A DNA stretch of 64,000 bases from Acidobacteriota bacterium (GTDB lineage: Bacteria > Acidobacteriota > UBA6911 > RPQK01 > JAJDTT01): positions 1 to 64,000 of the forward strand of contig CBDCJH010000002.1 in assembly GCA_965217775.1 (NCBI GenBank), in the 5' to 3' direction. Positions 9,728-51,400 of the stretch are shown here, one piece after another. Each line of letters begins with the position of its first letter. Position 1 is the stretch's first letter. The translations under genes were made by a program, and so were the position numbers. The notes below the pieces were generated by a model. It saw nothing but the letters and a program-made list of their open reading frames with translations. It had not been told where the DNA came from and made no database searches.

Positions 9728-9884
9728 GTCAACCTCCAGCTACATCTTCTTCATGGGGAGGCAGTGTATCCCATCCCCTCGGTCCTGTTTGCCGCGAAGA
9801 ACTGCTATCTTCGATGCAGTGGCAGGAGCTGGAGACGACACGTAACGCCGTCCTCCCGCGGCATCCGCACAGCCAAACCCGGAC

Positions 9885-11471: not shown

Positions 11472-11521
11472 CGCGCCGCCCCATCTTTCGCCGCGCTCTC
11501 GGGACTGAGAGAGAAAAAACC

Positions 11522-13495
11522 GTGTCCGAAGCAAGCTTGCTGATCGACCTGACGCTGCTCGTCGGCATGGCAATTCCCATCGTGGCGCTGGCGCACCGGT
11601 TGTCGGCTCCCTCCCTGGTGGGTTTCCTGGTGGCCGGAATCCTGGTGGGTCCCAATGGATTCGGGCTGATCGGCGCCACCAATGAAGTGGAGGTTCTGGC
11701 CGAAATCGGCGTCGCCCTGCTGCTCTTCGCGGTGGGACTTGAGCTGTCCCTGTCCCACGTCCGCCAGTGGGCGCGCTCGGTATTTGTCGGGGGAGGGTTG
11801 CAGGTGGGTTGCACACTGCTCGCCGTGGCGGCGTCAGCCATCGCCTTCGGCGTTCCGTCCGGCCAGGCGATCTTCTACGGCGCCGTCGCCGCGCTGTCTT
11901 CCACCGCCATCGTCACCAAGATCTATTCGGACAGGGCCGAACTGGACACGGCGCACGGGCGCTCCGTCATCTCCATCCTGCTCTTCCAGGATCTGTGCGT
12001 ATTGCCGGCCATTCTGGTGCTGCCGGTGCTCGCCGGACTGGGAACCGCTGATGTGAGCACCATGGGCATCGAGTTTCTGCGCGGACTCGCGATCATCACT
12101 GCGCTCATGATCGGCGGCCGGTTCATCGTCCGGCGGACGCTGGACCGGATCGTGCTGTTCCGCGACCGCGAACTGTTTACGCTGTGCGTCGCTTTCTTCT
12201 GCATCGGTACCGCCGTGGTGACTGCAGCGGTGGGTTTTTCCATCGCCATCGGCGCCTTCATCGCCGGCCTGGTCATCTCGGAATCGGAATACGGGTTGCA
12301 GGCGTTGTCGGACGTCCTGCCCTTTCGGGCCGTGTTCAGCGGGGTATTCTTCATCTCCATCGGCATGCTGCTCGACATTTCCGCCGTGATGACGCAACTG
12401 GGCGTGCTGGTTCCCCTGCTGGCGGTCCTGTTTGCGCTCAAGGTCACGCTGGCGACGGTGTCGGTCCTCGCGGTGGGCGGACGGCTGTCGACCGCGCTGA
12501 TCAGTGGCCTCACCCTGGCACAGCTTGGCGAATTCTCCATACTGCTCGCTGCGGAGGGGTTGCGCCTGGAGCTCTTTCGCGAGGGCGACTACCAGTTGTT
12601 CCTCAGTGCGGCGGTCCTGTCGATGATGGCCACGCCGTTTCTGATTCGCGCCGCTCGGCCCATCGCCGAACGCATTGCGCCGTCCGGCAAGAGGTTGCGG
12701 CGACTCGCCGGCGCCGATGCCGCCTCGGCCGAGGCGATGTCCGACCACACTGTCATTGTCGGCTACGGCCTCGCCGGTCGATATTTGGCACGGGTGCTCA
12801 ATGCGGCGGGTATCACCTGCATCGCCGTCGAACACGACGCGAATCTCGTCCGGCGCGCACGCGGGGACGGGGTCCCGGTGGAGTTCGGGGACGGGTCCCA
12901 GCCCGCCGTCCTGGAGCACGTCGGCGCACCTCGCGCTCGGGTCATTGTCTTCGCCATATCCTCACCGACCGAGGAGAGGCGCGGCGTCGCGGCCGCCCGC
13001 GACCTGAATTCGGAGGCCCGGATCGTGGTGCGTACCCGATACACTCGCTCCATCGACGAGTTGATGTCGCTCGGGGCCACGGACGTGGTGGTCGAGGAGT
13101 TTGAAGCCTCCATCGAACTGTTCGCCAAGGCCCTCGAAAGCTACCGGATTCCCATCAACCGGATCTGGCAGGAAGCCGAGACGGTGCGTACGGAACACTA
13201 CGGGCTGTTGCGCGGCACCGCCCAGCCGGATCTGCGACTCGATTCACTGAAGCATCTCGGCATTCACGATGCGCTGGAGCTGATGGAAATCAGGGAGGGA
13301 GCGAGAGTCATCGGAATGAACGCCACGTTGTTGCATTTGAGGCGGCGTACGGGCGTCGTGCAGATCGCTGTGGTGAGGGAGGGTCAGCCCATCTACCAAC
13401 GCGACTCGGAGTTCCATTACCGGGCCGGCGACACGGTCGTGCTGGTGGGCGACCGGGAAAGCCTGGACCGGGCCATTGAGCTGTACCAGGAATAG
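11522..13495 (+). CDS. CPA2 (Kef-type) cation:proton antiporter with TrkA-N and TrkA-C domains
   Basis: LAEIGVALLLFAVGLE, LSSTAIV, LLFQD, GEFS, IVGYGLAG (RCK domain) and a C-terminal GDTVVLVG; GTG start inferred. Confidence 0.92.
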   Translation: MSEASLLIDLTLLVGMAIPIVALAHRLSAPSLVGFLVAGILVGPNGFGLIGATNEVEVLAEIGVALLLFAVGLELSLSHVRQWARSVFVGGGLQVGCTLLAVAASAIAFGVPSGQAIFYGAVAALSSTAIVTKIYSDRAELDTAHGRSVISILLFQDLCVLPAILVLPVLAGLGTADVSTMGIEFLRGLAIITALMIGGRFIVRRTLDRIVLFRDRELFTLCVAFFCIGTAVVTAAVGFSIAIGAFIAGLVISESEYGLQALSDVLPFRAVFSGVFFISIGMLLDISAVMTQLGVLVPLLAVLFALKVTLATVSVLAVGGRLSTALISGLTLAQLGEFSILLAAEGLRLELFREGDYQLFLSAAVLSMMATPFLIRAARPIAERIAPSGKRLRRLAGADAASAEAMSDHTVIVGYGLAGRYLARVLNAAGITCIAVEHDANLVRRARGDGVPVEFGDGSQPAVLEHVGAPRARVIVFAISSPTEERRGVAAARDLNSEARIVVRTRYTRSIDELMSLGATDVVVEEFEASIELFAKALESYRIPINRIWQEAETVRTEHYGLLRGTAQPDLRLDSLKHLGIHDALELMEIREGARVIGMNATLLHLRRRTGVVQIAVVREGQPIYQRDSEFHYRAGDTVVLVGDRESLDRAIELYQE

Positions 13496-20459: not shown

Positions 20460-21885
20460 GAGGCTGTCCGAGAACTCGGTATTGAGCGACGTTCGTCCAT
20501 GACAACGCTCATGGGCGATGGTCGTTGGCTTGGAAGACCATCGAATCCCGGCCTTCAAAGCCGGTGAACTCGAGTTTTTGCGCCATTTTCGACTCGAAAA
20601 GGGCCGATAGAGGCCGGTTTGTGACTTCATCCCCCTTTATCCGCCCCTTTTTCATGCCCAGGCCGCTCGCTTCCCGAACTCCGGACACACCTCTCCCCGC
20701 AGTGCCGCAAAAATGATTTTCTTGAGGTTGTGCGCCCCGCAGACCAGCGAGAACTCCGCCGCCACTTTCGCCTTGCTCCGCAGCCCGAATCCCCGAAATC
20801 CCGAGTTCTTGATCTGCCCGAACACCGGCTCCACGGTCGCCTTGCGACGCGCGTAGATCGCCTGGCTCTCCGGTTGCGACATCCGCTCGTTCATCGCCCG
20901 TCGCAACGGCTCCTTCCCGTCGCTCGTCTCCTCCACCTCATCCCAGGCTGGAGCCACTTCCTGGGCATCGTTCGCCTGCTGGCTCACATGCTGACCCACG
21001 ATCACCTGCGACTTGCCGTCCACGCTGATCTGTGCGTTGTACGCGTACTCGAAGTCCCCTTTTTGCTTCATGATCCGCGCCTCGGGGTCCGCAATGCTGA
21101 TCTGCTTCTTGTCCTCGATCTTCTGACCCGGTCGAAGCTCCTGCTCCCGCGCTTCCAGCGTCTGCTTCATCTCCCGGACCTTCTTCAACCGCTGCTTCTT
21201 GTCGCGCAGGTCATCGGGCAGCTCATACCCGGTCCGCTCCTGGTAGACCCGATCCTCTTCCTCGTCGCAGCGGTCCGCCTGCCGGGTCAAGGCTTCGATC
21301 TCCTCGCACAATTCCTGCTCCTTCTGCTTCAGCCGTCCGTAGCTCATCGCCTTGTGCTTCGAGCTGTTCGCCTTGAACTTGGAGCCGTCCAGACTCACGT
21401 GTCCCAATGACACCAGCCCCAGCGCCAGCGCCAACTGCACCGTCTGTTTGAAGCCAGCCCGGAAGAATTCCCCGCGGTCCTTCCGGAAATCGCTCAACAC
21501 CCGGAAGTTCGGGCAGTTCCTCCCCGCGATGTACATGAACCCCAGATCCTCCCGGCAGCGCTGCTCGATCTGCCGGGAGCTGAACACGCCGCGGCTGTCG
21601 GCGTAGATCAGGATCGAAACGATCTGGCGCGGCGCGTAGGCGCGCTGGCCCCGGTCGCTGTACTGGGCCTCCACATCCGACGTGTCCAGTTGCTCGAACA
21701 GCTCCTGATAGAGGAAACATTCGTGATCCTCCGGCAAGAGGTCGAACAGGTTGGTCGCAAACAACCGACTCTGGCAATAGTCCTTGCGATAGGGCTTGAA
21801 TCGGGGGGCCATCCGACATTCTCCTGATGATCTGTTCCCCCTATTTTAGGGAGCGTCGGTGACAGCCCTATTCTCGGACAGCCTC
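20460..21885 (-). mobile_element. IS1182-family element, internally deleted (transposase ORF 20652-21812)
   Basis: 15-bp terminal inverted repeats GAGGCTGTCCGAGAA (20460-20474) and TTCTCGGACAGCCTC (21871-21885); transposase motifs SSRQIEQRC, LDGSKFKAN, YNAQ and VEPVFGQIK; only 386 aa and lacks the Cys-rich segment seen in the second copy. Confidence 0.92.
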
Positions 21886-22416
21886 CTAGGGAGTTCCGGG
21901 AGCTTTGTAGACCACGATTGCGTCGCTCTTGGTGACGGCGCCAGTAACAATACCCAACGCAGTCCCTATACCAATTGCAACTGCGGGGACGAACAATATA
22001 AGTCTCTGCGCTTCTCCTAGGTCTTTGTTGCCGGCTCTATTGGCAGGGGTCATCATCATGCCTGCAATCCCCAGCCCAGCTCCCGCTGCGGCTCCGATGA
22101 TCGCTCCTTTCCGGGCACCGTTTGCCGCGCCACCCTTCTTCTGAGTTGCAATCGTCTGGATGTCCGCATTCGGAATCACCGCCCGAGCGGAGTGGGTCTC
22201 GACGTCCACGTCCGATGCGGACAGGCTTTCGAAGTTTCCTTCGACCTGATCTCCGTTCTTGAGTTTCACCGTGATGGGTGTTCCCAAGTCCAGAGCAGAG
22301 ACCTTCTCCCAGCGGCCGGGGATCACCTCCGCATGGGCTGGCATGGAGATCAATCCCGTCAGAATCAAAGAGACGATTTGGATCCGGCATGATTTCATGG
22401 TTGGGGATCTCATCAT
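21886..22416 (-). CDS. Small secreted protein, Sm/LSm-like beta domain plus glycine-zipper membrane segments (paralog A)
   Basis: AGGAGG RBS, signal peptide ending AHA-E, GRWEKVSAL..VKLKNGDQVEGNF, GAIIGAAAGAGLG. Confidence 0.7.
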   Translation of the reverse strand: MMRSPTMKSCRIQIVSLILTGLISMPAHAEVIPGRWEKVSALDLGTPITVKLKNGDQVEGNFESLSASDVDVETHSARAVIPNADIQTIATQKKGGAANGARKGAIIGAAAGAGLGIAGMMMTPANRAGNKDLGEAQRLILFVPAVAIGIGTALGIVTGAVTKSDAIVVYKAPGTP

Positions 22417-22619
22417 GGCACCTCCTTCTGCCTGGATCTCCTGCCCCCCATGGGACCGTCCCCACAGAGGGCAGGAGGGACGCATCAGGAAATGTGATTT
22501 TCTCGCCCGGTTGGGCTCACCGAGGCCAGGAATGGCCACAGCAGGGGGGAAAAGGTCGCTCTGCCGCACGGGCATTTTCTGGGAATCGGGGTGGATACCC
22601 CACGGAGAAATTCCGGAAA

Positions 22620-23201
22620 TCAGTCGACGACTGTGACGATTGTCGTCTGGCGATCCAATTGTTTGCCCAGAAAATAGCCGAGAACGCCCCCACCCACAGG
22701 CGCACACACCATGCCAACCATCCGACCCACAGCTGCGGAGCGGCTCAATTCCCTCCATCCTCGGACACCGATGGCAATCGGAAATGACAACCCAGATCCG
22801 GTTCCCAGAAGCAGCCCCAGTCCCCGCGATTTACCTTCTATTCTCTCCACACGGATTTCATTGACTGACGCTTTGGGGACTATGGCGTCCCCACCCCCAG
22901 GGAAGCGCGTTCTATCGGTAGCCATTGTGATGCGACCGAGATGAATGCCACTGTCCTGAACGGCAATCACATCGCCCCGGACGGCACCCCCCTCCGAGAG
23001 CAACACCGTTAACTGTTTCTCTCCGCTCACAAAATCCCGAAGCTCCTCCATGGTCATCTCGCGGCGAATCTCCGTGGCGGCATTCAGCGCCTCGGGAACA
23101 CAGACTAGAGCGATCAAGACTTGCGCCAGCAGCAACGGGATTATCCCCGCCGCTGTGGTCTTCCTCAGCCATCTGTTGCTCTTGCGGATGAGAGTTACCA
23201 T
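22620..23201 (-). CDS. Small secreted protein, Sm-like domain plus glycine zipper (divergent member)
   Basis: GGAGG RBS, hydrophobic N-terminus, LTVLLSEGGAVRGDV..VPKASVNEIRV, GGGVLGYFLG. Confidence 0.65.
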   Translation of the reverse strand: MVTLIRKSNRWLRKTTAAGIIPLLLAQVLIALVCVPEALNAATEIRREMTMEELRDFVSGEKQLTVLLSEGGAVRGDVIAVQDSGIHLGRITMATDRTRFPGGGDAIVPKASVNEIRVERIEGKSRGLGLLLGTGSGLSFPIAIGVRGWRELSRSAAVGRMVGMVCAPVGGGVLGYFLGKQLDRQTTIVTVVD

Positions 23202-23343
23202 GGTGTCCACCTCCTTGAAGTGACTCGGAAATCTGTCGATGGACGCTCGCGGTCACCTTCGAATCATCACGCTCCTGCCCCCGTGGATCGTCCCCACAAC
23301 GGCCCTTTTCGTCTCCCCCTTGCGAATCTCTGTGCTTGGGACT

Positions 23344-23874
23344 CTAGGGAGTTCCGGGAGCTTTGTAGACTACGATTGCATCGCTCTTGGTGACGGCGCC
23401 AGTGAAAATGCCCAACGCAGTCCCGATTCCAGTTGCAACTGCGGGGACAAACAATAGAAAGAGTCCCTGCGCTTCTCCTAGGTCTTCGTTGCCGTCTCTA
23501 TTGGCAAGGGTCATCATCATGCCTGCAGCCCCAACCCCAGCTCCCGCTGCGGCTCCGATGATCGCTCCTTTCCGGGCGCCGTTTGCCGCGCCACCCTTCT
23601 TCTGAGTTGCAATCGTCTGGATGTCCGCCTTCGGAATCACCGCCCGAGCGGATTGGGTCTCGACGTCCACGTCTGATGCGGACAGTCCTTCGAAGTTTCC
23701 TTCGACCTGATCTCCGTTCTTGAGTTCCAACGTGATGGGTGTTCCCAAGTCCAGGGCAGACACTTTCTCCCAGCGGCCGGGGATCACCTCCCCATGGGCT
23801 AGCATGGAGATCAATCCCGCCAGCATCAAAGAGACGATTTGGATCCGGACTGACTTCATGGTTTGGAATCTCAT
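23344..23874 (-). CDS. Small secreted protein, near-identical paralog of 21886-22416 (paralog B)
   Basis: Near-identical protein and nucleotide sequence; AGGAGG RBS; start at ATG 23874 or GTG 23877. Confidence 0.72.
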   Translation of the reverse strand: MRFQTMKSVRIQIVSLMLAGLISMLAHGEVIPGRWEKVSALDLGTPITLELKNGDQVEGNFEGLSASDVDVETQSARAVIPKADIQTIATQKKGGAANGARKGAIIGAAAGAGVGAAGMMMTLANRDGNEDLGEAQGLFLLFVPAVATGIGTALGIFTGAVTKSDAIVVYKAPGTP

Positions 23875-24095
23875 CACGGCACCTCCTTCTTCCTGGTCCT
23901 CCTGCCCCCCGTGGGACCTCCCCACAGAGGGTAGGAGGGACGCATCAGGAAATGTGAGTTTTTCGCCGTGGGAGGCTCACCGGGGCCGGGGGTGACCACA
24001 ACAGGGAGGATTTCCGAATCAGGTGTGGGAGGGGGCGATGCCGGTTAATTTCAGTTAACGGGCGTCGAGCGGGATGCTCTCCTAGAGGGAGATGG

Positions 24096-27000
24096 TTACC
24101 GCTGGACCGGCACCACCGGCAGGGTCGTGAAGATCTGGTTGCCGGTGTCCAACTCCACTGCCACTCCAGTGAACATCCCGTCTCCCGCTGCCGTACACCG
24201 GACCGACCCGACGAAGTCGGTCGTGTCCGTCCTCGTGAACACCTCTTCGATGAACCGGGCATTTTGCCCATTGCCGTCGAGACGGATGTCCACCCGCTCC
24301 AGTTCCTCACCCTGGCTCATCAACCGGCACCGCACCAGGGCGCGTTGTGGCTCCAGATTCCGGATGGCCGCCGCCGTGCGGATTCTTCCCGCCTGCCGCC
24401 GGGCTGGGAACAGGGCGTCGGTCAAGGGTTGACTGGCGCCGACCCCGGCCACGCCGACGCCCGGGATGTCAAATCGCAGGACACCGCCGATGGGACTCGT
24501 GGACACGACTTGCACCGAGCCCGTGACGACCTCTCCCCGCCCATGCGTCGAGATCGTCAACTCACCCAGGCGAGCGATCGCGGTTCGGACGGTCAGACTT
24601 CCGTCGCCTCGCACCACCAGATCCTCCCCGATATCCACCATCGATTCCGGGTCCAGAAGATCGCCCGCCCGATCATAGAAGTAGATGGCCGGCCGGGCCG
24701 TTGACGCCGCCACGTTCACCAGCACCAGGTCGGAGGTGATCAAGGTTCCGTCGGCGGAAGTGCCATTGGCGAAGTGCGCGAAAGTCAGGGTCGTTGCTTC
24801 CTGCTCGCCACCCATCGGCTCCACGGGAACCACCGGCAGAGTGGTGAAGATCCGGTTGTCCGAATCCAGCTCCACCGCCACTCCCGTGAACGACTCACCG
24901 GCCGGGACCGTACAACGCACCGACCCCACGAAGTCCGTGGTGTCGGTCTCCGTGAACACTTCCTCGAGGAACTGCGCATCCTGGCCGTTCGCGCTGAGTT
25001 TGATCTCCCCCTCTTCCAGCACCCTGCCGTCCTTCATCAATCGGCACTGCACGTCGACGGCCTCCATCCCCAGGTTGTGGATGGCTGCCGCGGTGCGTAT
25101 CCCTCCGTCCTGCCGCCGGGCCGGGAACAGGGCGTCCGCCGTGGGTTCGCTGGCGCCGACACCGGCGACGCCGATGCCGGGGATGTCGAAGCGGACCACT
25201 CCGCCGACAGGTCCGTCCGAAACCACCCGCACCGATCCCGTCACCACCTCTCCCCGGCCGTGGGTGGAGATCGTCAGCTCGCCCAGCGAAGCGATCTCCG
25301 TCCGGGGCGACAGCCCTCCGTCGTCCCGGATCTCCAGATCGTCTCCGACATCCACCACGGACTCGGCTTCAAACAGATCTCCCTCCCCGTCGAAGAAGTA
25401 GACGGCGGGACGAATCTCCGACTCGGCGACGTTCACCAGCACCAGGTCGGAGGTGATGAGGACATCGTTGCCCGAGACCCCGTTTCCGAAATGGGCGAAC
25501 TCCAGGATCACCTCCTCGGCCATGGGCGTGGTCTCGACCGGGCTGGAGGGAGGACTTGGACCGACCGAATTCACCGCCCGCACCTCGAAAACGTAGGTCC
25601 GGCCGTTGGTCAGTCCAGTGACCGTATGGGTCAGGTCCGTGGAACCGGTGGAGATCCACTCCCCGGCCCGGTCGATCCGGACCTCGTAGCCGGTGAGGGC
25701 GGAGCGGCCGTCGCTCTCGGGGGCCTCCCAGGAGAGAGTCACTTCACCGTCCCCGGATTCTGCCTGCAGGTTCAATGCTGCCGTGGGCACAGTCGCAGCC
25801 GGAGGCGGTGGTGGCGGAGGAGGAGGCGGCGGTGGTGGCGGCGGCGGAGGAGGAGGCGGAGGCGGTGGAGGAGGTGGCGGCGGGGCCGAGACTTCGTTGT
25901 CCTGGACCGTGACCCGGGCGCTCTGAGTCGAAGTGGGTCCCAGCCGGTACTCGGCTCCCGGCTGCAGCCGGGCGGTGACCCGGCTCGTGGATTCGGCGAC
26001 GTCGTCATCGTCGGTCAACACCTCCAGCGTCGCCGTGTCCTGTCCGGACGGGAACTCCACCTCGTCCGGCGGTTCGTACCCGCCCGAGGTCTCGATCATC
26101 GATCCCGACTCCGTGACCTCCAGGCTCACCGTCAGTGAGGCCTCCGTGGGCGGCCCCCGCGTCAGGGTGAACTCTACGGGGTCGCCTTCCGTGACCGTCT
26201 CGGATCCCTGCTTGGCTGCGATGCTCACCAGTGGCGGGTCCGCCCGTTGATCGGTCAACGCCTCCACCGGGTTGCCCACCTCGTCCTGGATCGGGTCGAA
26301 CCCGGGTGTATAGCTCACCCTTACCGTCTCGCCCGCCGCCACCGCTGAGGTCAGCGTCAAGGTGACGCTGTTTCCTCTCACCTGGACCTGGATGACCGTC
26401 CGGTCATTCCCGTCCACCGTCACCGCGAAGTCGGAACTCGCCGGCCGCGATCCCACATCCAGTGGCTCGTCGTAGGTCAGCGACACCCGCGAGCCATGCA
26501 CCGTCACGCCCTCCAGTCCCGGTACGCTCGCGTCCACCTTGTGGTCCGGCTGCGTCTCGACCGCCTCGTAGCTCCGCCCCGCCGGATTGTCCGACAGATC
26601 CAGGATCTTTCCCCCGTTGAGCGCGATACTTCCGCGCGGGACGCTCACGCCGTCCTCGTCTTCGTCCCCCTTCTCCACCGTGTAGACGAACACCACCGCC
26701 GCCCGGGCGGGACCCGTGCCGGCGCTGGCCCGCTTCCTCCGGTTCCCCACCAGCAGGTCCAGCGTCGGTGTCCCCCGCACCGTGTCCACCGTCACCGTCT
26801 CGTCGTAGCGCACCGTCACGGAGATCATGTCGTCGACCGCGTAGGTCTCATCCGTCCCCGGATAGGAGCTGATCTCGATCCCTTCGATCGACGGGGCCGT
26901 CGTGTCCGGCGTCTGGTTGTCTACGAACTCGTCCCTGAAGGCCTCGGCATCGTTGCCGACCCGGTCCTGGATCGGATTCGATCGCGACTCGTAGCTCACC

Positions 27001-30000
27001 CGGATCCCGGTTTCTCCGTACTCCGCTGCTGGACTCACCGTCAGCCGCACCTCACTCCCGGTCACCTGAACCCGGGTCACGGTGCGCATCTCGTTGCCTC
27101 CCTCCACGGTGAAGTCACTCGTCGCCGGCCGGGAGGACGTATTCAGGGGTTCGTTGTAGGTCAGCGTCAGCGTCGCACCGTTGACCACCGCCGGGTCGGT
27201 CGGGGCCAGCGCCGGAGCCACCGCGTCCACCTGGTGGCTCATACTGGCCGCCACTGCGTCGTGATCCAAGGTAGCGTTATTGCCCGCCCCGTCGCGGATC
27301 GTTCCTCCAGACAGGCGGTTCGCCTCGATGCTCACCCCATCCTCGTCGGAATCGTCCGTCACCACGCGGTAGGTGAACTTCATGGCCCGGTTTGAGACGC
27401 TCCGGTACTCCGCCGTCGGATTCCGGCCCCCGACGTTCAGCGTCACTTCGGGCGTTCCCGTCACCACCACCGTCTCGTCAAACGTCACCGTCACTTCAAT
27501 GGTGTCGTCCACGCCGTAGGTCCGATCCGATCCCGCACTCGACGTGATTCGCACCGTTGACACCGTCGGCCCTGTCGTGTCTCCCGTCTTGTTGGAGACG
27601 CTCTTGTTGCTCAACCGGTCCGCGTCGTTGCCGGCCATGTCCTGGATCGGATTCGATCCCAGCTCATAGCCCACCCGGAGGCCACTTTCTCCGTCCGTGA
27701 CTGCTGGGCTCAGCGTCAAGAACACCGCGCTTCCGCTGACCCGGACTCCGGTGACCGTCCGGGTCTCACTCCCTCCGGTCACGCTGAAGTCGTCCGACGC
27801 AGGCTCCGACGACGAATCCAAAGGCTCGCCATAGGCCAGGTTGAGCGTCGTCCCGTTGGCCACCGCCCCGTCGGATGTCGCCAGCGCCGGTTTGATCCCG
27901 TCCACCTGGTGCTGGGAATCGGCCGCCACCGGCGCATGGGTCAGCACCGCGTTGTTCCGGGCTCCGTCACGGATGGTCCCACTGGAGAGACGATTGGCAT
28001 CAATGCTCACCCCGTAGGGGGCCGTGTCGCCCGTAACCACCTGGTACTCGAATCTCACGGCCGCCCCTGTGACGTCTTGGTAGTTGGCCGTCCGGCTCCG
28101 GCCCCCCACGTTCAACGTCAGCCGCGGCGTTCCCGTCACCACCACCGTCTCGTCAAACGTCACCGTCGCTTCGATGGTGTCGCCGGCCGCGTACGTCGAA
28201 TCCGACCCGGCATTGGAGGTGATCTGCACCGTCTCGATCGTCGGACCCGCCGTGTCCCCTGTGTTATTCGTGACCGGTTCGTTGTTCAACGCGTCCGCGG
28301 CGTTGCCCACCTTGTCCCGGATCAGATTCCCACTCGGCACGTAGCTCATCCGGAGGCCGAATTCCGTGTCCTGCACCGCCGGACTCAGGGTCAGGAAAAC
28401 AGCGTTCCCGCTCACCGACACGCTCGTCACCGTTCGCGTCTCACTGCCTCCCGTCACGGTGAAGGCGCTCGCCGCCGGCCGCGAGGAGGACCTCAGCGGC
28501 TCGCTGTAAGCCAGAGTCAGTGTGGTTCCGTTCACGACTGCCCCATCCGTCGTGGCCAGCATCGGAGCCACGCCATCCACCTTGTGCCGCGAGTTGGCTG
28601 CCACTCCCGCGTGGTCTAACGTCGCGTCATTTCGAGCTCCGTCGCGGATCGTCCCCCCAGACAGGCTGTCCGAGTCAATGCTGACCCCGTCCCGGTCCCG
28701 GTCGCCCGAGACCACCTTGTACTCGAATTTGACGGCGGAGCCCGAGACGCTCTCGTACTCCGCCGTTCGGTTCTGTCCGCCCACTTTCAAGGTCAATTCG
28801 GGCGTCCCTGTCACCACCACCGTCTCGTTAAACGTCACCGTCACCTCGATGGCATCGTCCACGGCGTAAGTGGAATCCGATCCCGCAATCGAGGTGATCC
28901 TCAGGGTCTGCACCGCCGGTCCCGTCGTGTCGCCCGTGACGTTGGTGACACTCCGGCTGCTTAACCGGGCCGCATCGTTGCCCGCCGTGTCCTGGATCGG
29001 GGCCGCTCCCGACCCGGTCGGCACCGTGTAGCTCACCCGGAGGCCCGTCTCCCCGTGTTCCACCGCCGAACTCAGCGTCAACTCCACTGCGCTCCCGCTT
29101 ACCCGGACTCCCGTGACCGTCCGCGTCTGGTTGCCCCCCGTCACGGAGAAGGCGTCGGTCCCCGGCTCCGAGGATATGTCCAATGGCTCACTGTAGGCCA
29201 GACTCAGCATGGTTCCGTTGGCAACCGCCCCGTCGGTCGTCGCCAGAGTGGGCTTGATGCCGTCCACCTTCTGCCCAGTGTCGGCCGTCACCGCCGTGTG
29301 GGTCCGGACCGCATTGTTCCTGGCGATGTCCCGGATCGTCCCCCCGGACACGCTGCCCGCCTCGATACTCACCCCGTCCGTGTCGCTGTCGTTGACGTCC
29401 ACCGTGTAGACAAACACGACCTCCGACCCAGTGACGCTCTCGTAGTTCGCCGATCGATCCCGCTCCCCCACCTTCAACGTCACCCGCGGGGTCCCGGACA
29501 CGGTGACGGTCTCGCTGAAGGTCAACTTCACCTCAATCTCGTCGTCGATGCCGTAGACGTCCCGGCTGTCCGGAGGATCCGACGTGATCTCCACCGAGGT
29601 GACCGTCGGTGGAATCCGGTCCGGTGTCTGGTTCGTCACCGGCTGGCTGCCCAGTCCGTCCGCATCGTTACCGACCCGGTCCTGAATCGGCATCGCCTCC
29701 ATCCCGGTCGGGATGATGTAGCTCACCTGGATCCCCGTCTCCCAATGCTCCACCGCCGGGGACAGCGTGAGTCGCACCGTGCTTCCGCTCACCACGGCCC
29801 CGGACACTGTTCGCGATGAAGAGCCTCCGGAAACGAAGAAAGCACCGGGCAGTGGCATCGAAGAGGAGTCCAGAGACTCGGTGTATGTCAGCGTCAGCGT
29901 CGCCCCGTTGACCACGGCGCCGTCGGTCATGACCAACTCCGGCTTGATGCCGTCCACCTTGTGCCGCGATTGGTTCCCCAATGCGCGATGATCCAGGTTG

Positions 30001-33000
30001 GCCTCGTTGTCCGAGCCGTCCTTGATCGTACCGCCATTGAGCGAAAGGCTGTCCGCCTCGATACTCACTCCGTTGGTATCAATGTCGCCGGTCCCGACCC
30101 GATAGTGGAACAGGACGTCCGCATCCGTGACGCTGTCGTAGTCCGCCGTTCGTTCCTGGTCCCCCACCATAAGAGTCAACTGCGGGGTCCCCGTCACCAA
30201 GACATCGTCGCTGAGGGTCACCGTCACCTCGATCAAATCACCGATCGCGTAGGTTGAATCCGATCCTGCGTCCGACGTGATCTCCAGTTGGCTCACCGTT
30301 GCCAGGACCGGAATGTCCACCATCACCCGGGCACTGCGGCTCGATTCGCCGCCATTGATTACGGCCGCTACCTGATAGGTATAGGTGTTGCCGCCGGTCA
30401 CCTCAGAATCGACGTATGAGCGGCTTGCAGTGTTCTCAGAGAGGACCTCACGGGTCGTGCCATCGTCTCGGGTCACGATGTAGGACAAACTTGGCGCCGA
30501 GGTCCATTCACTACTCAGATCCACCGCCGTCCATTCCAATTCCACCTGGTTTTGCCCATCACTCGTTGCCGATCTTGCAGTCAAGGTCGGTCCGGACCGT
30601 AGCTGGTAACCGAACTCCTCCCACGTTGCGTCCCCGTCCCCATCAAAATCCACAACCAGCACCGGATACTCGTCGGTCCCCCCGAAGTCCCATTCGTCAG
30701 CATCCCAATCCGCATAGATGCCGGTGTCGGCGGTGGGCGCCTGGAGCTGCTCGGTGGTCTGGCCGGTCCCGTGGTCTCCGGTCGCCTGCCCCGAGGTTGT
30801 CGTGTCCCAGTAACTGGCTGTGATCGTACTGCTGCCGAGCCCTCCGACCAGCCCGCCGATGCTCGTCTCCCCCGATACCCGGCCCGTGGCGTAACTCGCT
30901 CGGACCGTGTTGCCAGCTTCATACCCAACCAGGCCGCCGACAGACGATCTCCCCGACACGTCGCCCGTGGCGTAACTCGCCTCGATGATGATGCCAAGAT
31001 TCCACCCGACCAAGCCGCCGACAGACGAACTTCCCGACACCTTGGCGGCCGCATAGCTGGTCCGGACACTTTTGTAGTTAGACCCGACCAAGCCGCCGGT
31101 ATTGCCTAAGCCTGACACTTGGCCCGTGACGTAGCATGCCGTGATGGTGCCCAGATTAGTCCCGATCAGGCCGCCGACGTGCGTTCTTGCTGCCACATCG
31201 ACCTGGATCAGCCCGACGTGACGGATCTCGGCCACCCAGTCGGTATATCCAAACAACCCGGCATAGTTCGTCGAGGACCGATCAATGAACAGGTTGCGAA
31301 TGGTGTGGCCATTACCCTCGAACGTTGTCAGAAAATCAGATCCGCTCCTCCCAATGGGGTTCCATCCGGCGCCGTTGTTCCAGTAGGCGTCGTCTGAGTC
31401 GACATCTCCATCGCCGTCAGTGTCGAAGTCGAGATCCGCCATCAGCTCATAGCCACGACACTCAAGGACGCAACGGAGTTGTGAGTCCGCTTCCGGATAC
31501 GCGTCGGGAAACGCCGCGCGATAGGCACTCGCCCCGCCGGCCGTGGGGACGCCGTCGCCGTTTCGATCATGACGGACCGCGTCGAGTTGGGCGAGCGTCG
31601 TGATCTCGATGAGCCCATCGCCGTCGGTGTCGTAGTGCCGCTCCTTTGTCACATTCGTCACTTCGTGTCTGCGCAAGCTTGCCGCTGGGTTGCCCGCGAG
31701 ATCCCGGATGAGGTGGGGCGTGCCAAAAACCGAAATATTTGAAAATTTCACCGTCACCACCTCGCCCGCCAAGACCGGATCCCACAGCGTCACCGTCATG
31801 ACCGATCCGTCCACCACCACGTTAGGCACATATCTGCCACTCTCGGGGTGGTTGACCGCCACGGTGAAAAACGCTGAGGCCCGGGGCGCCGGCTGGGCCA
31901 ACGGCTCGTCGTAGGTCAGCGTCAGTATCGTTTCATCCACTACGGCCATCTGCAGCACCGGCTTGACGCCGTCCACACGGTGGTTCGCGTCGGAGGCGAG
32001 CGCACTGTGCGTCCGGCTCGCGTTCCGATTGGCGCTGTCCCGGATCGTGCCGCCGTTGAGCGACAGCGCGTTCTCGGCAATGCTCACCCCATCCGTATCG
32101 GTTTCGTCGGTGGCCACCTCGTAGGAAAACGTCACGGCATTGCGCGCCACTCCTTGATACGACGCCTGGCGCGTGTTGCTCTCCACCATCAGCCCGAGTT
32201 GCGGCGACCCCGTCACAATGACCGTCTTGTCAAAGCGCACCGTGGCTTCGATCTCCTCGCCCACCGCATATCCACCGCCAGGGTCCGAGGTCAGCGACAC
32301 GCTCAGGACGCTCGGGGCGCCGGTCACGGTATCGTTGTCGGTCAGCATGACCGTGGCGGTGGCCGGGCTGCCTGCACTCACGCCGCCGGGCAGCAGATAG
32401 CCCAGGGTCAGGGTCACGGTCTCATCGTCATCGTCCACGGCATCGTCGACGGCCGTGACGGTGAAGGTCTTTTCGGTCTCGTTCGCAGCGAAGGACACGC
32501 TGGCCGGTACGGTGTAGTCGGACGCTGCGGCGCCGGTGGTACTCGTTGCCGTGACCGGAATGTCAATCGCGCGGCTGGGCTCGTCGCTCACGCGGACCGT
32601 CACGGTCGCCGTGATTCCACCCTCGGTTGCGGTGTATGTCTCGGCATCAAAGGACACCGTGATCGCCGGCGCGCTCCGGTAGTTCGCCACGTAGCCGCGC
32701 GTCCGGTTGAGCATTCGCACCGCATCGGACGGACCGTCGGCGCCCGGTGACGGATCGAGGCCGGCCTTGCCCAGGGGGTCGCCGCCGGGATCGGGATAGA
32801 TCTGATCCGGATTCGAGAAGCGGAGAATTTGCGAGCATCGGCCGCACTGGTTGGGGTACGCCATGATGGTACGCCAGAAGGCGGTGTCGGGTGCGCCCGG
32901 CTCCAGCGCCTCCTGGTTGACGTAGCCAAAGGCGTATGGAAACCGCGTGAAACCGCCGCAGTTGCTGCCGCAGACCTGGTACCGGTCATGGCGGACACCC

Positions 33001-33956: not shown

Positions 33957-33996
33957 GAAGTTTGCAAGCGCGATCAGCCCTCCGGCCACCGCGTCC

Positions 33997-34596
33997 TCAG
34001 GGCACGTCGCCGGTTCCGGAATCGGGCTCCACCACGTCACATTCGAGCGGCGGCTCCTCGACCTCGCTGATGGCGTAAAGTCCGCCGCCCACCGATCGAA
34101 TCCGGTATGTGCCACCCAGCGTCCTCACCGTGCCAGCGACCGTCTCGCCGTTGACGACGAGGGTCAGCGTGCCCACCGGCTCACCCACCACCCGGCCGGA
34201 GATCGAATAACCGCCCGAAAACGTCGGCGCGGTCCGTTCGACGATCCCGGTGAACACGATGTCCTCGAACAGATTCAGAGTCAGGGTTCCATCCTTTCCG
34301 GGCTCCACATCACGCTGGGGACGACGCGGGGACACAGTCTTGGTGTGAACACGGGAGTGGGGGAAAACGGAGGCGGCTGCCCGGGCGCGCTGCAGCCGTT
34401 CCAAGTCCATCGTCACCAACCGACGGCGGACCGTTATGGCATCGAGCGCGGCCGGCACAGGCGAATCCAGCTGCGCCTCCACAGGATCGATGGGGGAAAA
34501 GAGGCCGTCGCGCTGGGCCGCGACGGCTGGGGCGGGCGACCAGACCAGCCATAGGACAGAGACTGCTGTGACATACTGCGCACTTGGCCACGACAT
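33997..34596 (-). CDS. Stand-alone secreted propeptide-like protein of reprolysin-type proteases (copy 1)
   Basis: AAGGAGG RBS, signal peptide ending AVAA-Q, LTLNLFEDIVFTGIVERTAPTFSGGYSISGR..TYRIR; C-terminal PPLEC Cys; no zinc motif. Confidence 0.7.
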   Translation of the reverse strand: MSWPSAQYVTAVSVLWLVWSPAPAVAAQRDGLFSPIDPVEAQLDSPVPAALDAITVRRRLVTMDLERLQRARAAASVFPHSRVHTKTVSPRRPQRDVEPGKDGTLTLNLFEDIVFTGIVERTAPTFSGGYSISGRVVGEPVGTLTLVVNGETVAGTVRTLGGTYRIRSVGGGLYAISEVEEPPLECDVVEPDSGTGDVP

Positions 34597-35100: not shown

Positions 35101-38100
35101 TTACCGCTGAACCGGCACCACCGGCAGGGTCGTGAAGATCTGGTTGCCGGTGTCCAGCTCCACCGCCACTCCGGTGAACATCCCGTCTCCAACTGCCGTA
35201 CACCGGACCGACCCGACGAAGTCGGTCGTGTCCGTCCTCGTGAACACCTCTTCGATGAACCGGGCATTTTGCCCATTGCCGTCGAGACGTATGTCCACCT
35301 GCTCCAGCTCCTCACCCTGGCTCATCAACCGGCACCGCACCAGGGTCCGCTGTGGCTCCAGATTCCGGATGGCCGCCGCCGTGCGGATTCTTCCCGCCTG
35401 CCGCCGGGCTGGGAACAGGGCGTCGGTCAAGGGTTGACTGGCGCCGACCCCGGCCACGCCGACGCCCGGGATGTCAAATCGCAGGACACCGCCGATGGGA
35501 CCCGTGGACACGACTTGCACCGAGCCCGTGACGACCTCTCCCCGCCCATGCGTCGAGATCGTCAACTCACCCAGGCGAGCGATCGCGGTTCGGACGGTCA
35601 GACTTCCGTCGCCTCGCACCACCAGATCCTCCCCGACATCCACCATCGATTCCGGGTCCAGAAGATCGCCCGCCCGATCATAGAAGTAGATGGCCGGCCG
35701 GGCCGTTGACGCCGCCACGTTCACCAGCACCAGGTCGGAGGTGATCAAGGTTCCGTCGGCGGAAGTGCCATTGGCGAAGTGCGCGAAAGTCAGGGTCGTT
35801 GCTTCCTGCTCGCCACCCATCGGCTCCACGGGAACCACCGGCAGAGTGGTGAAGATCCGGTTGTCCGAATCCAGCTCCACCGCCACTCCCGTGAACGACT
35901 CACCGGCCGGGACCGTACAACGCACCGACCCCACGAAGTCCGTGGTGTCGGTCTCCGTGAACACTTCCTCGAGGAACTGCGCATCCTGGCCGTTCGCGCT
36001 GAGTTTGATCTCCCCCTCTTCCAGCACCCTGCCGTCCTTCATCAATCGGCACTGCACGTCGACGGCCTCCATTCCCAGGTTGTGGATGGCCGCCGCGGTG
36101 CGGATCCCGCCCTCCTGCCGCCGGGCCGGGAACAGGGCGTCCGCCGTGGGTTCGCTGGCGCCGACTCCGGCCACCCCGATCCCGGGGATGTCGAAGCGGA
36201 CCACTCCGCCGATGGGGCCGTCCGACACGACCCGGACCGACCCCGTCACCACCTCTCCCCGGCCGTGGGTCGAGATCGTCAGCTCGCCCAGCGACGCGAC
36301 CTCTGTCCGGGGCGACAGCCCTCCGTCGTCCCGGATCTCCAGATCGTCTCCGACATCCACCACGGACTCGGCTTCAAACAGATCTCCCTCCCCGTCGAAG
36401 AAGTAGACGGCGGGACGAATCTCCGACTCGGCGACGTTCACCAGCACCAGGTCGGAGGTGATGAGGACATCGTTGCCCGAGACCCCGTTTCCGAAATGGG
36501 CGAACTCCAGGATCACCTCCTCGGCCATGGGCGTGGTCTCGACCGGGCTGGAGGGAGGACTTGGACCGACCGAATTCACCGCCCGCACCTCGAAAACGTA
36601 GGTCCGGCCGTTGGTCAGTCCAGTGACCGTATGGGTCAGGTCCGTGGAACCGGTGGAGATCCACTCCCCGGCCCGGTCGATCCGGACCTCGTAGCCGGTG
36701 AGGGCGGAGCGGCCGTCGCTCTCGGGGGCCTCCCAGGAGAGAGTCACTTCACGGTCCCCGGATTCTGCCTGCAGGTTCAATGCTGCCGTGGGCACAGTCG
36801 CAGCCGGCGGCGGTGGTGGCGGAGGCGGCGGCGGCGGTGGTGGCGGAGGCGGAGGAGGAGGAGGCGGAGGAGGAGGAGGCGGAGGGGGAGGAGGAGGTGG
36901 CGGCGGGGCCGAGACTTCGTTGTCCTGGACCGTGACCCGGGCGCTCTGAGTCGAAGTGGGTCCCAGCCGGTACTCGGCTCCCGGCTGCAGCCGGGCGGTG
37001 ACCCGGCTGGTGGATTCGGCGACGTCGTCATCGTCGGTCAACACCTCCAACGTCGCCGTGTCCTGTCCGCCCTGGAACCGAACCTCCTTCGGCGGATCGT
37101 ACCCGCCCGAGGTCTCGATCATCGATCTCGTCTCCGTGACCTCCAGGCTCACCGTCAGCGAGGCCTCCGTCGGGGGTCCCCGCGTCAGCGTGAACTCCAC
37201 GGTCTCGCCTTCCGTCACCGTCTCCGATCCTTGCTTGGCCTGGATGGTGACCAGCGGCGGGTCCGCCCGTTGATCGGTCAACGCGTCCACGGCGTTGCCC
37301 ACCTCGTCCTGGATCGGGTTGAATCCCGGCGTGTAGCTGACCATTACGGTTTCGCCCGCTGTCACCGTTGAGGCCAACGCCAAGATGACACTGTTTCCGC
37401 TCACCCTAACCTGGACCACCGTTCGATCGTTTCCCGCCACCGTGACCGCGAAGTCAGAACTCGCTGGCGTCGAGCTATCATCCAACGGCTCGTCATAGTT
37501 GAGGGCAACCTGCAAGCCATGTACCGCCACGCTCTCCAGATCCGGCTCGCTCGTGTCCACCTTGTGGTCCGGCTTCGTCTCCACCGCCTCGTAGCTCCGC
37601 CCCGCCGGGTTGTCCGCCAGATCCAGGATCTTCCCCCCGTTGAGCGCGATGCTTCCCCGCGGAACGCTCACTCCGTCGTTGTCCTCGTCTCCCTTCTCCA
37701 CCGTGTAGACGAATACCACTGCGGCCCGGGCGGAACCCGTGCTGGCACTCGCCCGCTTCCGCCGGGCCCCCACCAGCAGGTCCAGCGTCGGCGTCCCCCG
37801 CACCGTGTCCAGCGTCACCGTCTCGTCGTACCGCACTGTCACCGAGATCATGTCTCCAATGGCGTACGTCTCGTCCGTCCCCGGGTCCGAGCTGATCTCG
37901 ATCGCTTCGATCGATGGGGCCGTCGTGTCCGGCGTCTGGTTGTCGACGAACTCGTCCCTGAAGGCTTCGGCATCGTTTCCGATCGCATCCTGAATCGGAT
38001 TCGATCGCGACTCGTAGCTCACCCGGATGCCTGTCTCTCCGTGCTCCGTTGACGGACTAACCGTCAGCCGAACCGTGCTCCCGGTCACCTGAACCCGAGT

Positions 38101-48404: not shown

Positions 48405-51400
48405 TCATCTTTGAATCGGCACTACCGGCAGCGTGGTGAAGATCCGGTTGCCCCTATCCAGCTCCACCGCGACTCCCGTGAACAGGCCTTCCCCGAGAGC
48501 CGTGCATCTCACCGATCCGACGAAGTTTCGCGTATCCGTCCTGGTGAAGACCTCTTCGATGAACCGGGCATGCTGTCCGTGGGCGTCGAGGCGGATGTCC
48601 GCCTCTTCCAGGGGCTCGCCCCCGCTCATCAACCGGCACCGCACCGTTGCGCGCTGCGCCGCCAGGTTGCGGATCGCCGCCGCGGTGCGGATTCCGGCTG
48701 CTTGACGCCGCGCCGGAAACAGGGCGTCCGTCGTGGGTTGACTCGCTCCCACGCCGGCGACGCCGATGCCGGGGATGTCGAAGCGCAGGACGCCGCCGAT
48801 GGGTCCGTTCGCCAGCACCCGCACCGATCCCGTCACCACCTCTCCCCGGCCGTGGGTCGAGATCGTCAACTCGCCCAGACGGGCCATGGCCGTTCGAACC
48901 GTCAAGCCTCCGTCCTCTCGGACCAGAAGGTCGTCTCCGACGTCCACCATTGATTCCGGCTCCAACAGTTCTCCGCGCTGATCGTAAAAGTAGATGGCGG
49001 GACGGGCGGTCGAGGCGGCCACGTTCACCAGCACCAGGTCCGACGTGATCAAGGTCCCGTCGCCGGAAGTTCCATTGGCGAAATGGGCGAAGGTCAGGGT
49101 CGTTTCCTGGTCTTCGGCAGCCTCCGGGCCGATCGGCACCACCGGCAGGGTGGTGAAGATCCGGTTGCCCGCATCCAGCTCCACCGCCACCCCCGTGAAC
49201 GACTCACCGGCCGGGACCGTACAACGCACCGACCCCACGAAGTCGGTGGTGTCGGTCGCGGTGAACAGCTCCTCGATGAACTGGGCGGCCTGGCCGTTGG
49301 CGCTCAACGGGATCTCCCCCTCTTCCAGCACACTGCCGTTCCTCATCAATCGACACTGCACCTTCACCGCTTCCGGGCCCAGGTTGTGGATGGCCGCCGC
49401 GGTGCGGATCCCGCCCTCCTGCCGCCGGGCCGGGAACAGGGCGTCCGCCGTGGGTTCGCTGGCGCCGACTCCGGCGACGCCGATTCCGGGGATGTCGAAG
49501 CGGACCAGTCCGCCCATGGGGCCGTCCGACACGACCCGGACCGATCCCGTCACCACCTCTCCCCGGCCGTGGGTCGAGATCGTCAGCTCGCCCAGCGACG
49601 CGACCTCCGTCCGGGGCGACAGCCCTCCGTCCTCCCGGATCTCCAGATCCTCCCCGGCATCCACCACGGATTCGGCTTCAAACAGATCTCCGTTCCCGTC
49701 GAAGAAATAGATGACCGGACGGATCTCTTCTTCGGAGACGTTCACTAGCACGAGGTCGGAGGTGATGAGGACGTCGTTGCCCGAGACCCCGTTTCCGAAG
49801 TGGGCGAACTCCAGGATCACCTCCTCCACCATGGGCGTGGCCTCGACCGCGTCGGAGGGAGGACTTGGCCCGACTGAGTTCACCGCCCGCACCTCGAAGA
49901 CGTAGGTCCGGCCGTTGGTCAGTCTGGTGACGGTGTAGGTCAGGTCCGTGGAACCGATGGAGGTCCAGTCCCCGGCCCGGTCGATCCGGACCTGGTAGCC
50001 GGTGAGGGCGGAGCGCCCGTCGCTCGCAGGCACATCCCAGGTCAGCGTCACTTCACCGTCCCCGGCTTCTGCCTGCAGGTTCAACGGTGCCGTGGGCACA
50101 GTCGCAGCCGGAGGCGGTGGCGGCGGCGGCGGTGGCGGAGGCGGTGGCGGCGGCGGCGGTGGTGGCGGCGGTGGAGGAGGAGGTGGTGGGGGCGGGGCCG
50201 AGACTTCGTTGTCCTGGACCGTCACCCGGGCGCTCCGGGTCGAGGTCGGTCCCAGCCGGTACTCGGCTCCCGGCTGCAGCCGGGCGGTGACCCGGCTGGT
50301 GGATTCGGCGACGTCGTCATCGTCGGTCAACACCTCCAACGTCGCCGTGTCCTGTCCGCCCTGGAACCGAACCTCCTTCGGCGGATCGTACCCGCCCGAG
50401 GTCTCGATCATCGATCTTGTCTCCGTGACCTCCAGGCTCACCGTCAGCGAGGCCTCCGTCGGGGGTCCCCGCGTCAGCGTGAACTCCACGGTCTCGCCTT
50501 CCGTCACCGTCTCGGATCCCTCCTTGGCCTGGATGGTCACCAGGGGCGGGTCCGCGCGTTGATCGGTCAACCCATCCACGGCGTTGCCCGCCTCATCCTG
50601 GATCGGGTCGAGACCGGGTGTATAGCTCACCCTTACCGTCTCGCCCGCCGTCACAGGAGCGGTCAGCCTCAAGATGACACTGTTTCCGCTCACCCGGACC
50701 TGGACCACCGTTCGATCATCCCCGGCCATCGTGACCTCGAAGTCAGAGCTCGACGGTGTCGAGCTCTCATCCAGCGCCTCGTCGTAGGTCAGCGCCACCC
50801 GCGAGCCATGCACGGTCACGCCCTCCAATCCCGGCACGCTCGCGTCCACCTTGTGGTCCGGCTTCGTCTCCACCGCTTCGTAACTCCGCGCCGCCGGGTT
50901 GCCCGACAGATCCAGGATCTTTCCTCCATTGAGCGCGATGCTCCCCCGCGGGACGCTCACGCCGTCCTCGTCCTCGTCTCCCTTCTCCACCGTGTAGACG
51001 AACATCACCGCCGGCCGGTCCGGCCCTACACTGGCGCTGGCCCGCTTTCTCCGGGTCCCCACCAGTAAATCCAACGTCGGCGTTCCGCGAATGGTGTCCA
51101 CCGTCACCGTCTCGTCGTACCGCACTGTCACCGAGATCATGTCGTCGACCGCGTAGGTCTCGTCCGTCCCCGGGTCCGAGCTGATCTCGATCCCTTCGAT
51201 CGACGGGGCCGTGGTGTCCGGCGTCCGGTTGTCTACGAACTGGTCCCTGAACGCTTCGGCATCGTTGCCGATCGCATCCTGGATCGGGTTCGATCGCGGC
51301 TCGTAGCTCATCCGGATCCCCGTCTCTCCGTGTTCCGCCGCCGGGTTCACCGTAAGACGAACCGTGCTTCCGCTCACCTGAACCCGGGTCACGGTGCGCG

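Follow-up and report, generated by a model that had tools for sequence, protein, structure and literature searches.

Introduction

Domains of the ASRAH superfamily are eight-stranded beta-sandwiches defined by a tryptophan in strand 1 and a near-invariant asparagine that ends strand 2 (De Souza, Iyer and Aravind, 2009; PMC2739507). In the part of that paper drawn on here, these domains are predicted to bind a sugar or small molecule in a cleft that has strand 2 as its lining and the dimer interface as part of its wall, the solo ASRT/TM1070 proteins are described as tetramers, and the extracellular families are said to occur always as dyads or tetrads (PMC2739507). Here we describe a C-terminal unit of about 230 residues that is present in seven copies, six of them as tandem pairs at the ends of three giant proteins, in the first 64 kb of contig 2 (henceforth the window) of a metagenome-assembled genome (MAG) of an Acidobacteriota bacterium, 6.43 Mb in two contigs. 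Each unit is very probably a dyad of ASRAH-type sandwiches, and we favor, at about even confidence, a role of the module in holding exported proteins in place by ligand binding.

The founding family of the superfamily, ASRT/TM1070 (PF07100; structures 2ii7 and 1nc7), is akin to the module in its eight-stranded sandwich, in being the top structural match, in the strand-2 asparagine and in its assembly in fours. However, canonical ASRT/TM1070 proteins are solo cytoplasmic proteins of 14 kDa, whereas the tails described here are four copies fused to the end of giant exported proteins; the module also has no PF07100 match, carries phenylalanine in place of the strand-1 tryptophan and lacks the His/Cys contacts of TM1070. 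The DUF5719 family (PF18986, 319 positions) is likewise an array of the same repeat of about 110 residues, is linked to the module by profile comparison and reaches its cut-off in one member, but the module has its own motifs (FxHFxNG, STHGRG, FPARRQ and FTTLPVVP), two conserved cysteines and a terminal position. Closest in architecture are the secreted ASRAH tetrads on N-acetylmuramoyl-L-alanine amidases of Chloroflexi and the dyads of actinobacterial lipoproteins, which are extracellular, as the module is predicted to be, and were proposed to position the attached protein by binding envelope glycan; compared by description only, they differ from the module in phylum, partners and sequence family (PMC2739507).

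Two other kinds of system invite comparison. The C-terminal domains of the type IX secretion system (T9SS) and the PEP-CTERM/exosortase tags are, like the module, C-terminal, attached to unrelated secreted passengers, lineage-restricted and found in tens of copies per genome. Known tags of these systems are 30-100 residues long, whereas the module spans 230-470 residues, is tandem and is occasionally internal. In contrast to PEP-CTERM proteins, it ends in ...NxIFTTLPVVPVQR right after a beta-strand and lacks a PEP motif, a transmembrane helix and a basic tail. SLH, LysM and choline-binding repeats retain exoproteins on the cell surface non-covalently, and here the likeness is an analogy of proposed principle, namely repeated terminal binding modules on an envelope polymer. 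Their folds and sequences are unrelated to those of the module, and no Pfam SLH or LysM match was found in the three giants or their tails.

Results

Seven copies of a C-terminal unit in the window

Three giant open reading frames (ORFs) lie on the minus strand of the window: G1 (24096-34115, 3339 aa), G2 (35101-48183, 4360 aa) and G3 (48405-56987, 2860 aa). From its N-terminus, G1 comprises a signal-like segment, LRR, a reprolysin-like M12 peptidase, Calx-beta, GLUG, seven SWM repeats, fn3 and two units. G2 contains nine SWM repeats, Big_5, fn3 and two units, while G3 carries LRR, a reprolysin-like peptidase, Calx-beta, seven SWM repeats, fn3 and two units. Translation of the ORF ends revealed that the last ~470 residues of each giant are two back-to-back units of ~233 residues, bordered by F-x-H-F-x-N-G at the start and FTTLPVVP at the end, the final FTTLPVVP of the giants falling 3 residues short of the stop. 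In G1, an fn3 domain (25530..25772, residues 2782-2862; PF00041, E 4e-16) directly precedes unit a, the first dyad (24819..25517; genome-search match 24819-25511), and unit b (genome-search match 24099-24800) closes the protein with FTTLPVVPVQR before the stop codon at 24096-24098. The corresponding units of G2 are unit a at 35824..36522 (genome-search match 35824-36516) and unit b at 35104..35805, the latter 98% identical to G1 unit b; those of G3, delimited by genome search, are unit a at 49131..49820 and unit b at 48408..49106. All six lie on the minus strand with their genes. The seventh copy resides on the plus strand in a headless ORF (62226-63107, 293 aa), the last 228 residues of which (62421-63104) form a single unit.

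A search of the genome with one unit recovered all seven window copies at E 1.7e-79 to 6e-149, values well outside what chance would give, and together with the translations this places every copy, including the tandem pairs on the three giants, where an initial annotation of this DNA had reported them. Two further features that it had described are borne out as well: the pair of conserved cysteines corresponds to C158 (in CRLM) and C202 (in VRC), each at least 90% conserved in a 27-sequence alignment, and the conserved terminal motif is the FTTLPVVP in which the units of the window end.

Fold of the unit

An AlphaFold2 model of G1 unit b, built from the 27-sequence alignment, is all-beta and consists of two sandwiches (pLDDT 93.4, pTM 0.87), an N-terminal one formed by unit residues 1-122 (24435..24800, minus strand) and a C-terminal one formed by residues 123-234 (24099..24434, minus strand). 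The N-half modeled alone, from 30 sequences, gave a pLDDT of 94.7. Both halves were compared with 48,161 PDB representatives by exhaustive alignment. The top match of the C-half (124-234) was 1nc7, the TM1070 protein of T. maritima (Z 13.1, root-mean-square deviation (rmsd) 2.5 A, 106 aligned of 116), followed by 2ii7, the Anabaena sensory rhodopsin transducer (Z 10.1), and then by a chain at Z 7.0. The N-half returned the same two structures at the head of its list, 1nc7 (Z 10.1, rmsd 3.4, 100 aligned) and 2ii7 (Z 8.1), with the next at 6.5. The predicted C-half has eight strands and matches the topology of TM1070. By Foldseek, 1nc7_B had the top TM-score of the list (0.59/0.62, prob 1.00), yet it ranked 14th by E-value. 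Foldseek matches to the whole unit, weak and over two domains, with TM ~0.2 and WxLIP 9i1y_B as the best at E 2.4e-4, were set aside as generic sandwiches.

The hallmarks of the superfamily can be followed in both halves. The strand-2 asparagine is present as N29 (at least 90% conserved), which ends strand 20-29, and as the invariant N148, which ends strand 140-148. In strand 1, the tryptophan gives way to phenylalanine, a conservative replacement, at F7 of the N-half and F131 of the C-half. The rule that extracellular families form dyads or tetrads holds, with two sandwiches per unit and two units in 22 of 30 carrier ORFs of the genome and in 114 of the best 148 representatives of public clusters (see below). 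Besides the two conserved cysteines, the alignment shows invariant R134, R135, T142, N148 and Q179 in the C-half, and in the model the terminal FTTLPVVP forms the last strand of the second sandwich. We conclude that each unit of ~230 residues is very probably a dyad of ASRAH-type (ASRT/TM1070-like) beta-sandwiches, and a tandem pair therefore a tetrad.

A profile link to DUF5719 and ASRT

Pfam and NCBIfam scans of the window copies returned no family, the window copies gave no match to PF18986 (cut-off 26.2 bits), the DUF5719 model matched 0 of 46 representatives at E 1e-6, and a profile of the family against all PDB sequences gave 0 matches at E <=10. The initial remark that the domain was not recognized as a named family thus holds for Pfam and NCBIfam matches to the window copies, but does not extend to the ASRT/TM1070 fold or to the profile link with DUF5719.

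This link was seen from several sides. PF18986 exceeds its cut-off in 19 of 301 genomes of the phylum. A clear member of our family from another genus (G100:C33:82881-83540; 173.7 bits, 170-180 in a second comparison) contains a PF18986 match above the cut-off (G100:C33:82938-83246, 35.9 bits), and in return the family profile matches 10 of 28 DUF5719 loci, three of them at E <=2e-10. The nearest named clusters in the ESM Atlas are DUF5719 (0.95) and a cluster in which 39% of the members are DUF5719 and 13% ASRT (0.94). We then aligned a family profile of 92 sequences, non-redundant at 70%, by hhalign with 10 acidobacterial DUF5719 regions above the Pfam cut-off, excluding the clear family member L110 and a locus from the unpublished genome G024. 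The alignment of the two profiles spans 203 columns and keeps two consecutive sandwiches in register (Prob 96.8%, E 2.5e-10), while ten column shuffles gave E 0.083-0.94 and the reversed profile 0.15. A second alignment, offset by one sandwich, was also significant (E 8.9e-10), and the two halves are therefore homologous repeats. The same DUF5719 regions aligned with 6 canonical ASRT proteins over 95 columns (Prob 84.7%, E 6.7e-6). The module forms a large family of its own within the ASRAH superfamily, outside Pfam ASRT and DUF5719 by their cut-offs.

Over the genome itself, PF07100 and PF18986 gave nothing above their cut-offs; their weak matches fell on two other ORFs and on the divergent paralog at 1889032, the sole ASRT one scoring 15.1 bits and lying outside the units. 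Two ORFs of ~1000 aa (G000:C2:1788221-1789174 and 5925887-5926882) have weak DUF5719 matches, the first also a weak ASRT match, and from their sequence both may represent additional, more remote ASRAH-type repeat proteins. The most divergent paralog, L031 (G000:C2:1887577-1889661), is 38% identical to a window unit and has sub-threshold matches to DUF5719 (E 0.015) and to the Pfam 'S-layer protein' family Slr4 (PF19526; E 5e-5, 23 bits against a cut-off of 25), the latter being the sole S-layer-related signal found.

Full-text literature searches found no paper on 'DUF5719' and, for 'ASRAH', a sole relevant one (PMC2739507); searches with Acidobacteriota, sponge and domain terms found nothing describing the module, an absence from the library searched that is not proof. 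A paper on the lectin CML1, considered as a source on sugar binding, was rejected as support, for TM1070 figures in the portion consulted merely as a weak structural neighbor.

The module occurs in 30 ORFs of one genome, mostly at the C-terminus

A hidden Markov model (HMM) built from the seven window copies and run against all stop-to-stop ORFs of the genome gave ~52 unit matches in 30 ORFs, compared to 53 matches by genome search. In 26 of these carriers the ORF ends within 13 aa of the last unit. The remaining four comprise two copies that are partial or divergent and two proteins with a trypsin domain, in which the pair is internal (roughly residues 914-1379), with 387 aa (PKD) or 1664 aa (14 CARDB repeats) behind it. 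The module had been called always C-terminal, and so it is in the window and in the 26 carriers; the internal pairs in 2 of the 30 ORFs contradict a strict rule. A signal-like hydrophobic segment near the start was detected by a crude hydrophobicity script in 23 of the 30 carriers, and of the seven that lack one, four are headless fragments. The heads include LRR, SWM repeats, fn3, cadherin, Calx-beta, NHL propellers, astacin, reprolysin, M64, trypsin, GSDH and Cache, a diversity that, along with the script's count of signal-like segments, agrees with the proposal of a shared module on unrelated, signal-bearing passengers.

No gene family recurred at more than 4 of 17 carrier loci when 8 kb on each side (976 ORFs) were inspected, and no dedicated transporter or partner was found there. 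A quick tree of 50 units of this genome placed the a-units of 13 giant SWM-repeat proteins in one clade (SH-aLRT 100) and their b-units in another (97), and the pair therefore spreads as a module.

A lineage-restricted family in public sequences

Public libraries yielded 930 near-length matches, which come without Pfam domains or source names and many of which are truncated gene calls. The family accounts for 5232 representative clusters at E <=1e-3, 2687 at <=1e-10 and 771 at <=1e-30, and none of the five NCBI/ENA clusters looked up carries a name. Among the best 148 representatives, those without two full units (34) have one; the last unit is followed by no more than 15 aa in 122 of them and by a longer tail in 9, the other 17 being truncated. 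Close relatives are Acidobacteriota MAGs, one of them labeled Aminicenantes, and one relative bears a sponge-type bin name. In an even sample of the phylum the domain was detected in 52 of 401 genomes (the positives including the unpublished G049), among them all 27 sampled genomes of the same order and 8 of 10 others of the same class. This distribution agrees with the earlier idea of a lineage-specific domain, and both the lineage restriction and the abundance per genome (30 ORFs here) resemble those of domains for sorting or anchoring.

The extreme C-terminus is conserved in two forms, ...PVVPVQR as in the window or ...PVVPVPERMSQE. The second is seen in many homologs outside the genus (P0007, P0011, P0013 and others), which share a conserved six-residue acidic tail extension, ...PVVPVPERMSQE with variants ending in QE or RE.

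Two dyads are predicted to pack symmetrically

We modeled unit a together with unit b and obtained a complex score of 0.72 (runs 0.72, 0.72 and 0.74), the best of three controls reaching 0.01. In the calibration of this procedure, 116 of 157 solved pairs compared to 2 of 215 mismatched pairs reached the mark. Contacts were at least 91% consistent between runs and partner pLDDT was at least 87. The predicted interface is symmetric and uses the same residues of both chains (~26-32, 76-82, 103-109, 116-122, 130-132, 161-165, 197-201, 216-218 and 223-234). Since residues 223-234 are part of it, FTTLPVVP would be a structural strand at the dyad-dyad interface.

A putative ligand-binding module for retention or anchoring

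How might a module of this fold serve so many different proteins? In our favored reading, which we hold at roughly even confidence, it binds a ligand and thereby retains or anchors proteins that are exported by Sec and carry diverse heads. The carriers would be exported by Sec through their predicted N-terminal signal peptides, and the two dyads would pack via a two-fold-symmetric interface that includes the FTTLPVVP strand. The resulting four-sandwich body would bind a single small ligand common to all carriers, for which the superfamily and a cluster of invariant polar residues make a sugar unit of a polysaccharide the most probable candidate. The candidate ligand site is this cluster (R134, R135, T142, N148, Q179 and D195) in the second sandwich of each dyad, and C158 and C202 may be joined by a disulfide. 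Because the same conserved module ends ~30 very different exoproteins per genome, the ligand itself probably does not vary, and a glycan from the envelope of the bacterium itself is the likeliest candidate. The module would then hold its carriers non-covalently on the cell surface, much as SLH or LysM repeats do, rather than signal their export.

Binding or anchoring is preferred over an export signal because of the fold family, the tandem duplication, the two internal pairs, the structural nature of the terminal motif and the lack of recurring neighbor machinery at the carrier loci, and we consider a secretion-signal role less likely. In the two trypsin-domain carriers a C-terminal export tag could not work, since the pair is internal there. 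The initial annotation had pictured an export or S-layer-anchoring module. What survives of this is the shared, near-terminal, anchoring-like distribution, whereas the terminal motif modeled as a sandwich strand, the lack of a recognizable sorting tail and the internal pairs speak against the export part. It had also held that a match to a characterized binding domain would tell against such a role; the ASRAH fold was matched, and the sugar binding of that fold is itself only a prediction.

Alternatively, the module could be a lectin-like domain or carbohydrate-binding module (CBM) that targets an external glycan, such as the sponge host matrix or food, and docks proteases, LRR/fn3/cadherin proteins and sensors there. 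The same fold and superfamily evidence speaks for this possibility; in two proteins the pair lies right behind a trypsin-like catalytic domain and is internal, a position often taken by CBMs; the passengers are 'eukaryote-like' interaction domains, and the relatives stem from Acidobacteriota MAGs. We nonetheless judge it unlikely: it would predict glycan-active enzymes and substrate-driven diversification, whereas the module is 55-85% identical on ~30 unrelated, mostly non-glycan-active heads including a Cache sensor, and a near-strict terminal position (26 of 30 ORFs; 122 of 131 non-truncated representatives) is unusual for CBMs.

Somewhat less likely again is a C-terminal sorting domain for an outer-membrane export or attachment machinery of a new kind, comparable in function to the T9SS C-terminal domain, the ASRAH fold being incidental. 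It would account for the almost always C-terminal position, the presence, dozens of times per genome, on unrelated passengers with predicted Sec signal peptides, the confinement to one lineage and the conservation of the extreme C-terminus in either of its forms. However, the conserved end is modeled as the last sandwich strand, in the predicted dyad-dyad interface, and is no free tag, no hydrophobic helix or basic tail follows it, the unit is tandemly duplicated in most carriers and internal in two, an NCBIfam scan of the tails gave no T9SS-tail model, and no gene family accompanies the carriers beyond the 4 of 17 loci noted above. The T9SS models TIGR04189 (SprA/Sov) and TIGR04183 had no match in the genome, but control genomes were equally silent.

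A ligand-free structural foot or oligomerization knob that dimerizes or bundles giant stalk proteins would fit the confident symmetric interface, the tetramers described for solo ASRT/TM1070 proteins (PMC2739507) and the many invariant glycine and hydrophobic residues of that interface, but is very doubtful given that the invariant polar R134, R135, T142 and Q179 lie outside the listed interface residues (a list that is not exhaustive) and that short non-stalk proteins such as the Cache sensor carry the module too.

Several points weigh against the ligand-binding anchor that we favor. The near-strict C-terminal position, the copy number and the lineage restriction fit a sorting domain equally well, and T9SS C-terminal domains are beta-sandwiches too. 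Pfam ASRT (PF07100, cut-off 25 bits) matches 0 of 27 family members at E <=10 and DUF5719 (PF18986) 2 of 27, the best at E 0.0036. Direct hhalign comparisons with the 6 canonical ASRT proteins, which come from other Acidobacteriota, were not significant (E 0.024 for the N-half, 0.15 for the C-half), nor was that of the N-half with the C-half (E 0.15-0.23); the strand-2 asparagine is in register in all of these alignments. Because the direct profile comparisons are not significant, ASRAH homology depends on one transitive step plus the fold. The TM1070 contact residues, the His and Cys of its SHEshChhN strand, are not conserved in the module, where hhalign sets the invariant V26 opposite the Cys and the His in a gap; the superfamily paper reports that they are replaced in other ASRAH families too (PMC2739507). 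The sugar binding of ASRAH domains is a contextual prediction from that one 2009 paper, and the binding pocket and C158-C202 disulfide proposed here are themselves putative. Finally, the complex score may partly reflect model memory of the solved TM1070/ASRT tetramers, and intra- and inter-molecular pairing are inseparable in it because units a and b are 68% identical.

Paralogy and apparent rearrangement of the giant array

The tails of G1 and G2 (24096-25700 and 35101-36705) differ at 8 of 534 residues. The two proteins are 81.5% identical across their last 2077 aa and ~41% identical farther upstream, and over the 1500 aa ahead of the 534-aa tail identity is ~80%. That the tail is far more conserved than the heads, as first noted, is therefore true, but the contrast needs a qualification in that G1, G2 and G3 are recent paralogs throughout their C-terminal two thirds. 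Because the G1 and G2 tails are nearly identical while the preceding 1500 aa are only ~80% so, recent gene conversion of the tail is suggested.

The seventh copy is the 3' remnant of a longer gene: its similarity to a 792-aa open frame from the same genus begins at window position 62256 and there is none upstream; from that point the two are 83.7% identical at the nucleotide level over 852 nt. In the 792-aa frame, 726 aa were examined, a signal-like start among them. A DDE transposase gene and a transposase fragment (20652-21812 and 58923-59354) flank the array of three giants, and the truncated dyad gene at 62226-63107 sits just outside it. Judged from sequence, the array looks as if rearranged by insertion-sequence activity.

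Short ORFs adjoin the giant genes on both sides. Directly upstream of, and slightly overlapping, each giant gene start with an LRR/M12 head lies a conserved ORF of ~190-265 aa with a signal-like start (33997-34596 and 57017-57814 on the minus strand, and G000:C2:2588876-2589442). The three copies are 61-69% identical among themselves and have no Pfam match; each may be either a small gene in its own right or the leader of the giant gene, split off by a frameshift. Just downstream of G1 are members of two protein families, both small (~190-290 aa) and with starts that resemble signal or transmembrane segments (23344-23925, 22620-23210 and 21886-22758, minus strand). These families have at least 10 tblastn copies in the genome and no Pfam match, some adjoin other carriers (4 of 17 loci), and one copy forms the N-terminal part of an ORF at 5.27 Mb that combines NHL with a dyad.

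Elsewhere in the window, three consecutive long ORFs (7052-12919, minus strand; 891, 695 and 361 aa) match no Pfam family at E <=1e-3. An RNA library labeled as sponge metagenome yielded only pieces of 33-154 nt, among them one 154-nt contig that aligns to 26175-26328 with a single mismatch; since the library may contain DNA, we draw no conclusion about expression or habitat from it.

Discussion

The family described here is large and carries no name in Pfam, NCBIfam or source annotations, and it marks ~30 exoproteins per genome in an uncultured acidobacterial lineage. Its assignment to ASRT/TM1070 and DUF5719 turns an orphan into a testable glycan-binding hypothesis, and adds a fourth architecture to the ASRAH superfamily. 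A single HMM offers a simple handle with which to list the interaction proteins that these bacteria secrete. Should the ligand be a polymer of the cell's own envelope, the module would represent a new principle of non-covalent surface display in a diderm phylum.

A more far-reaching interpretation, possible though on balance doubtful, is that the ASRAH tetrad serves as the address tag in a system of cell-surface display specific to this lineage, docking nearly the whole 'eukaryote-like' exoprotein repertoire of one order (LRR, fn3, cadherin, NHL and protease proteins) onto one envelope glycan or receptor. Should this be true, the module would define a symbiont surface proteome and would give the ASRT/DUF5719 superfamily its first assigned ligand class and role in the cell.

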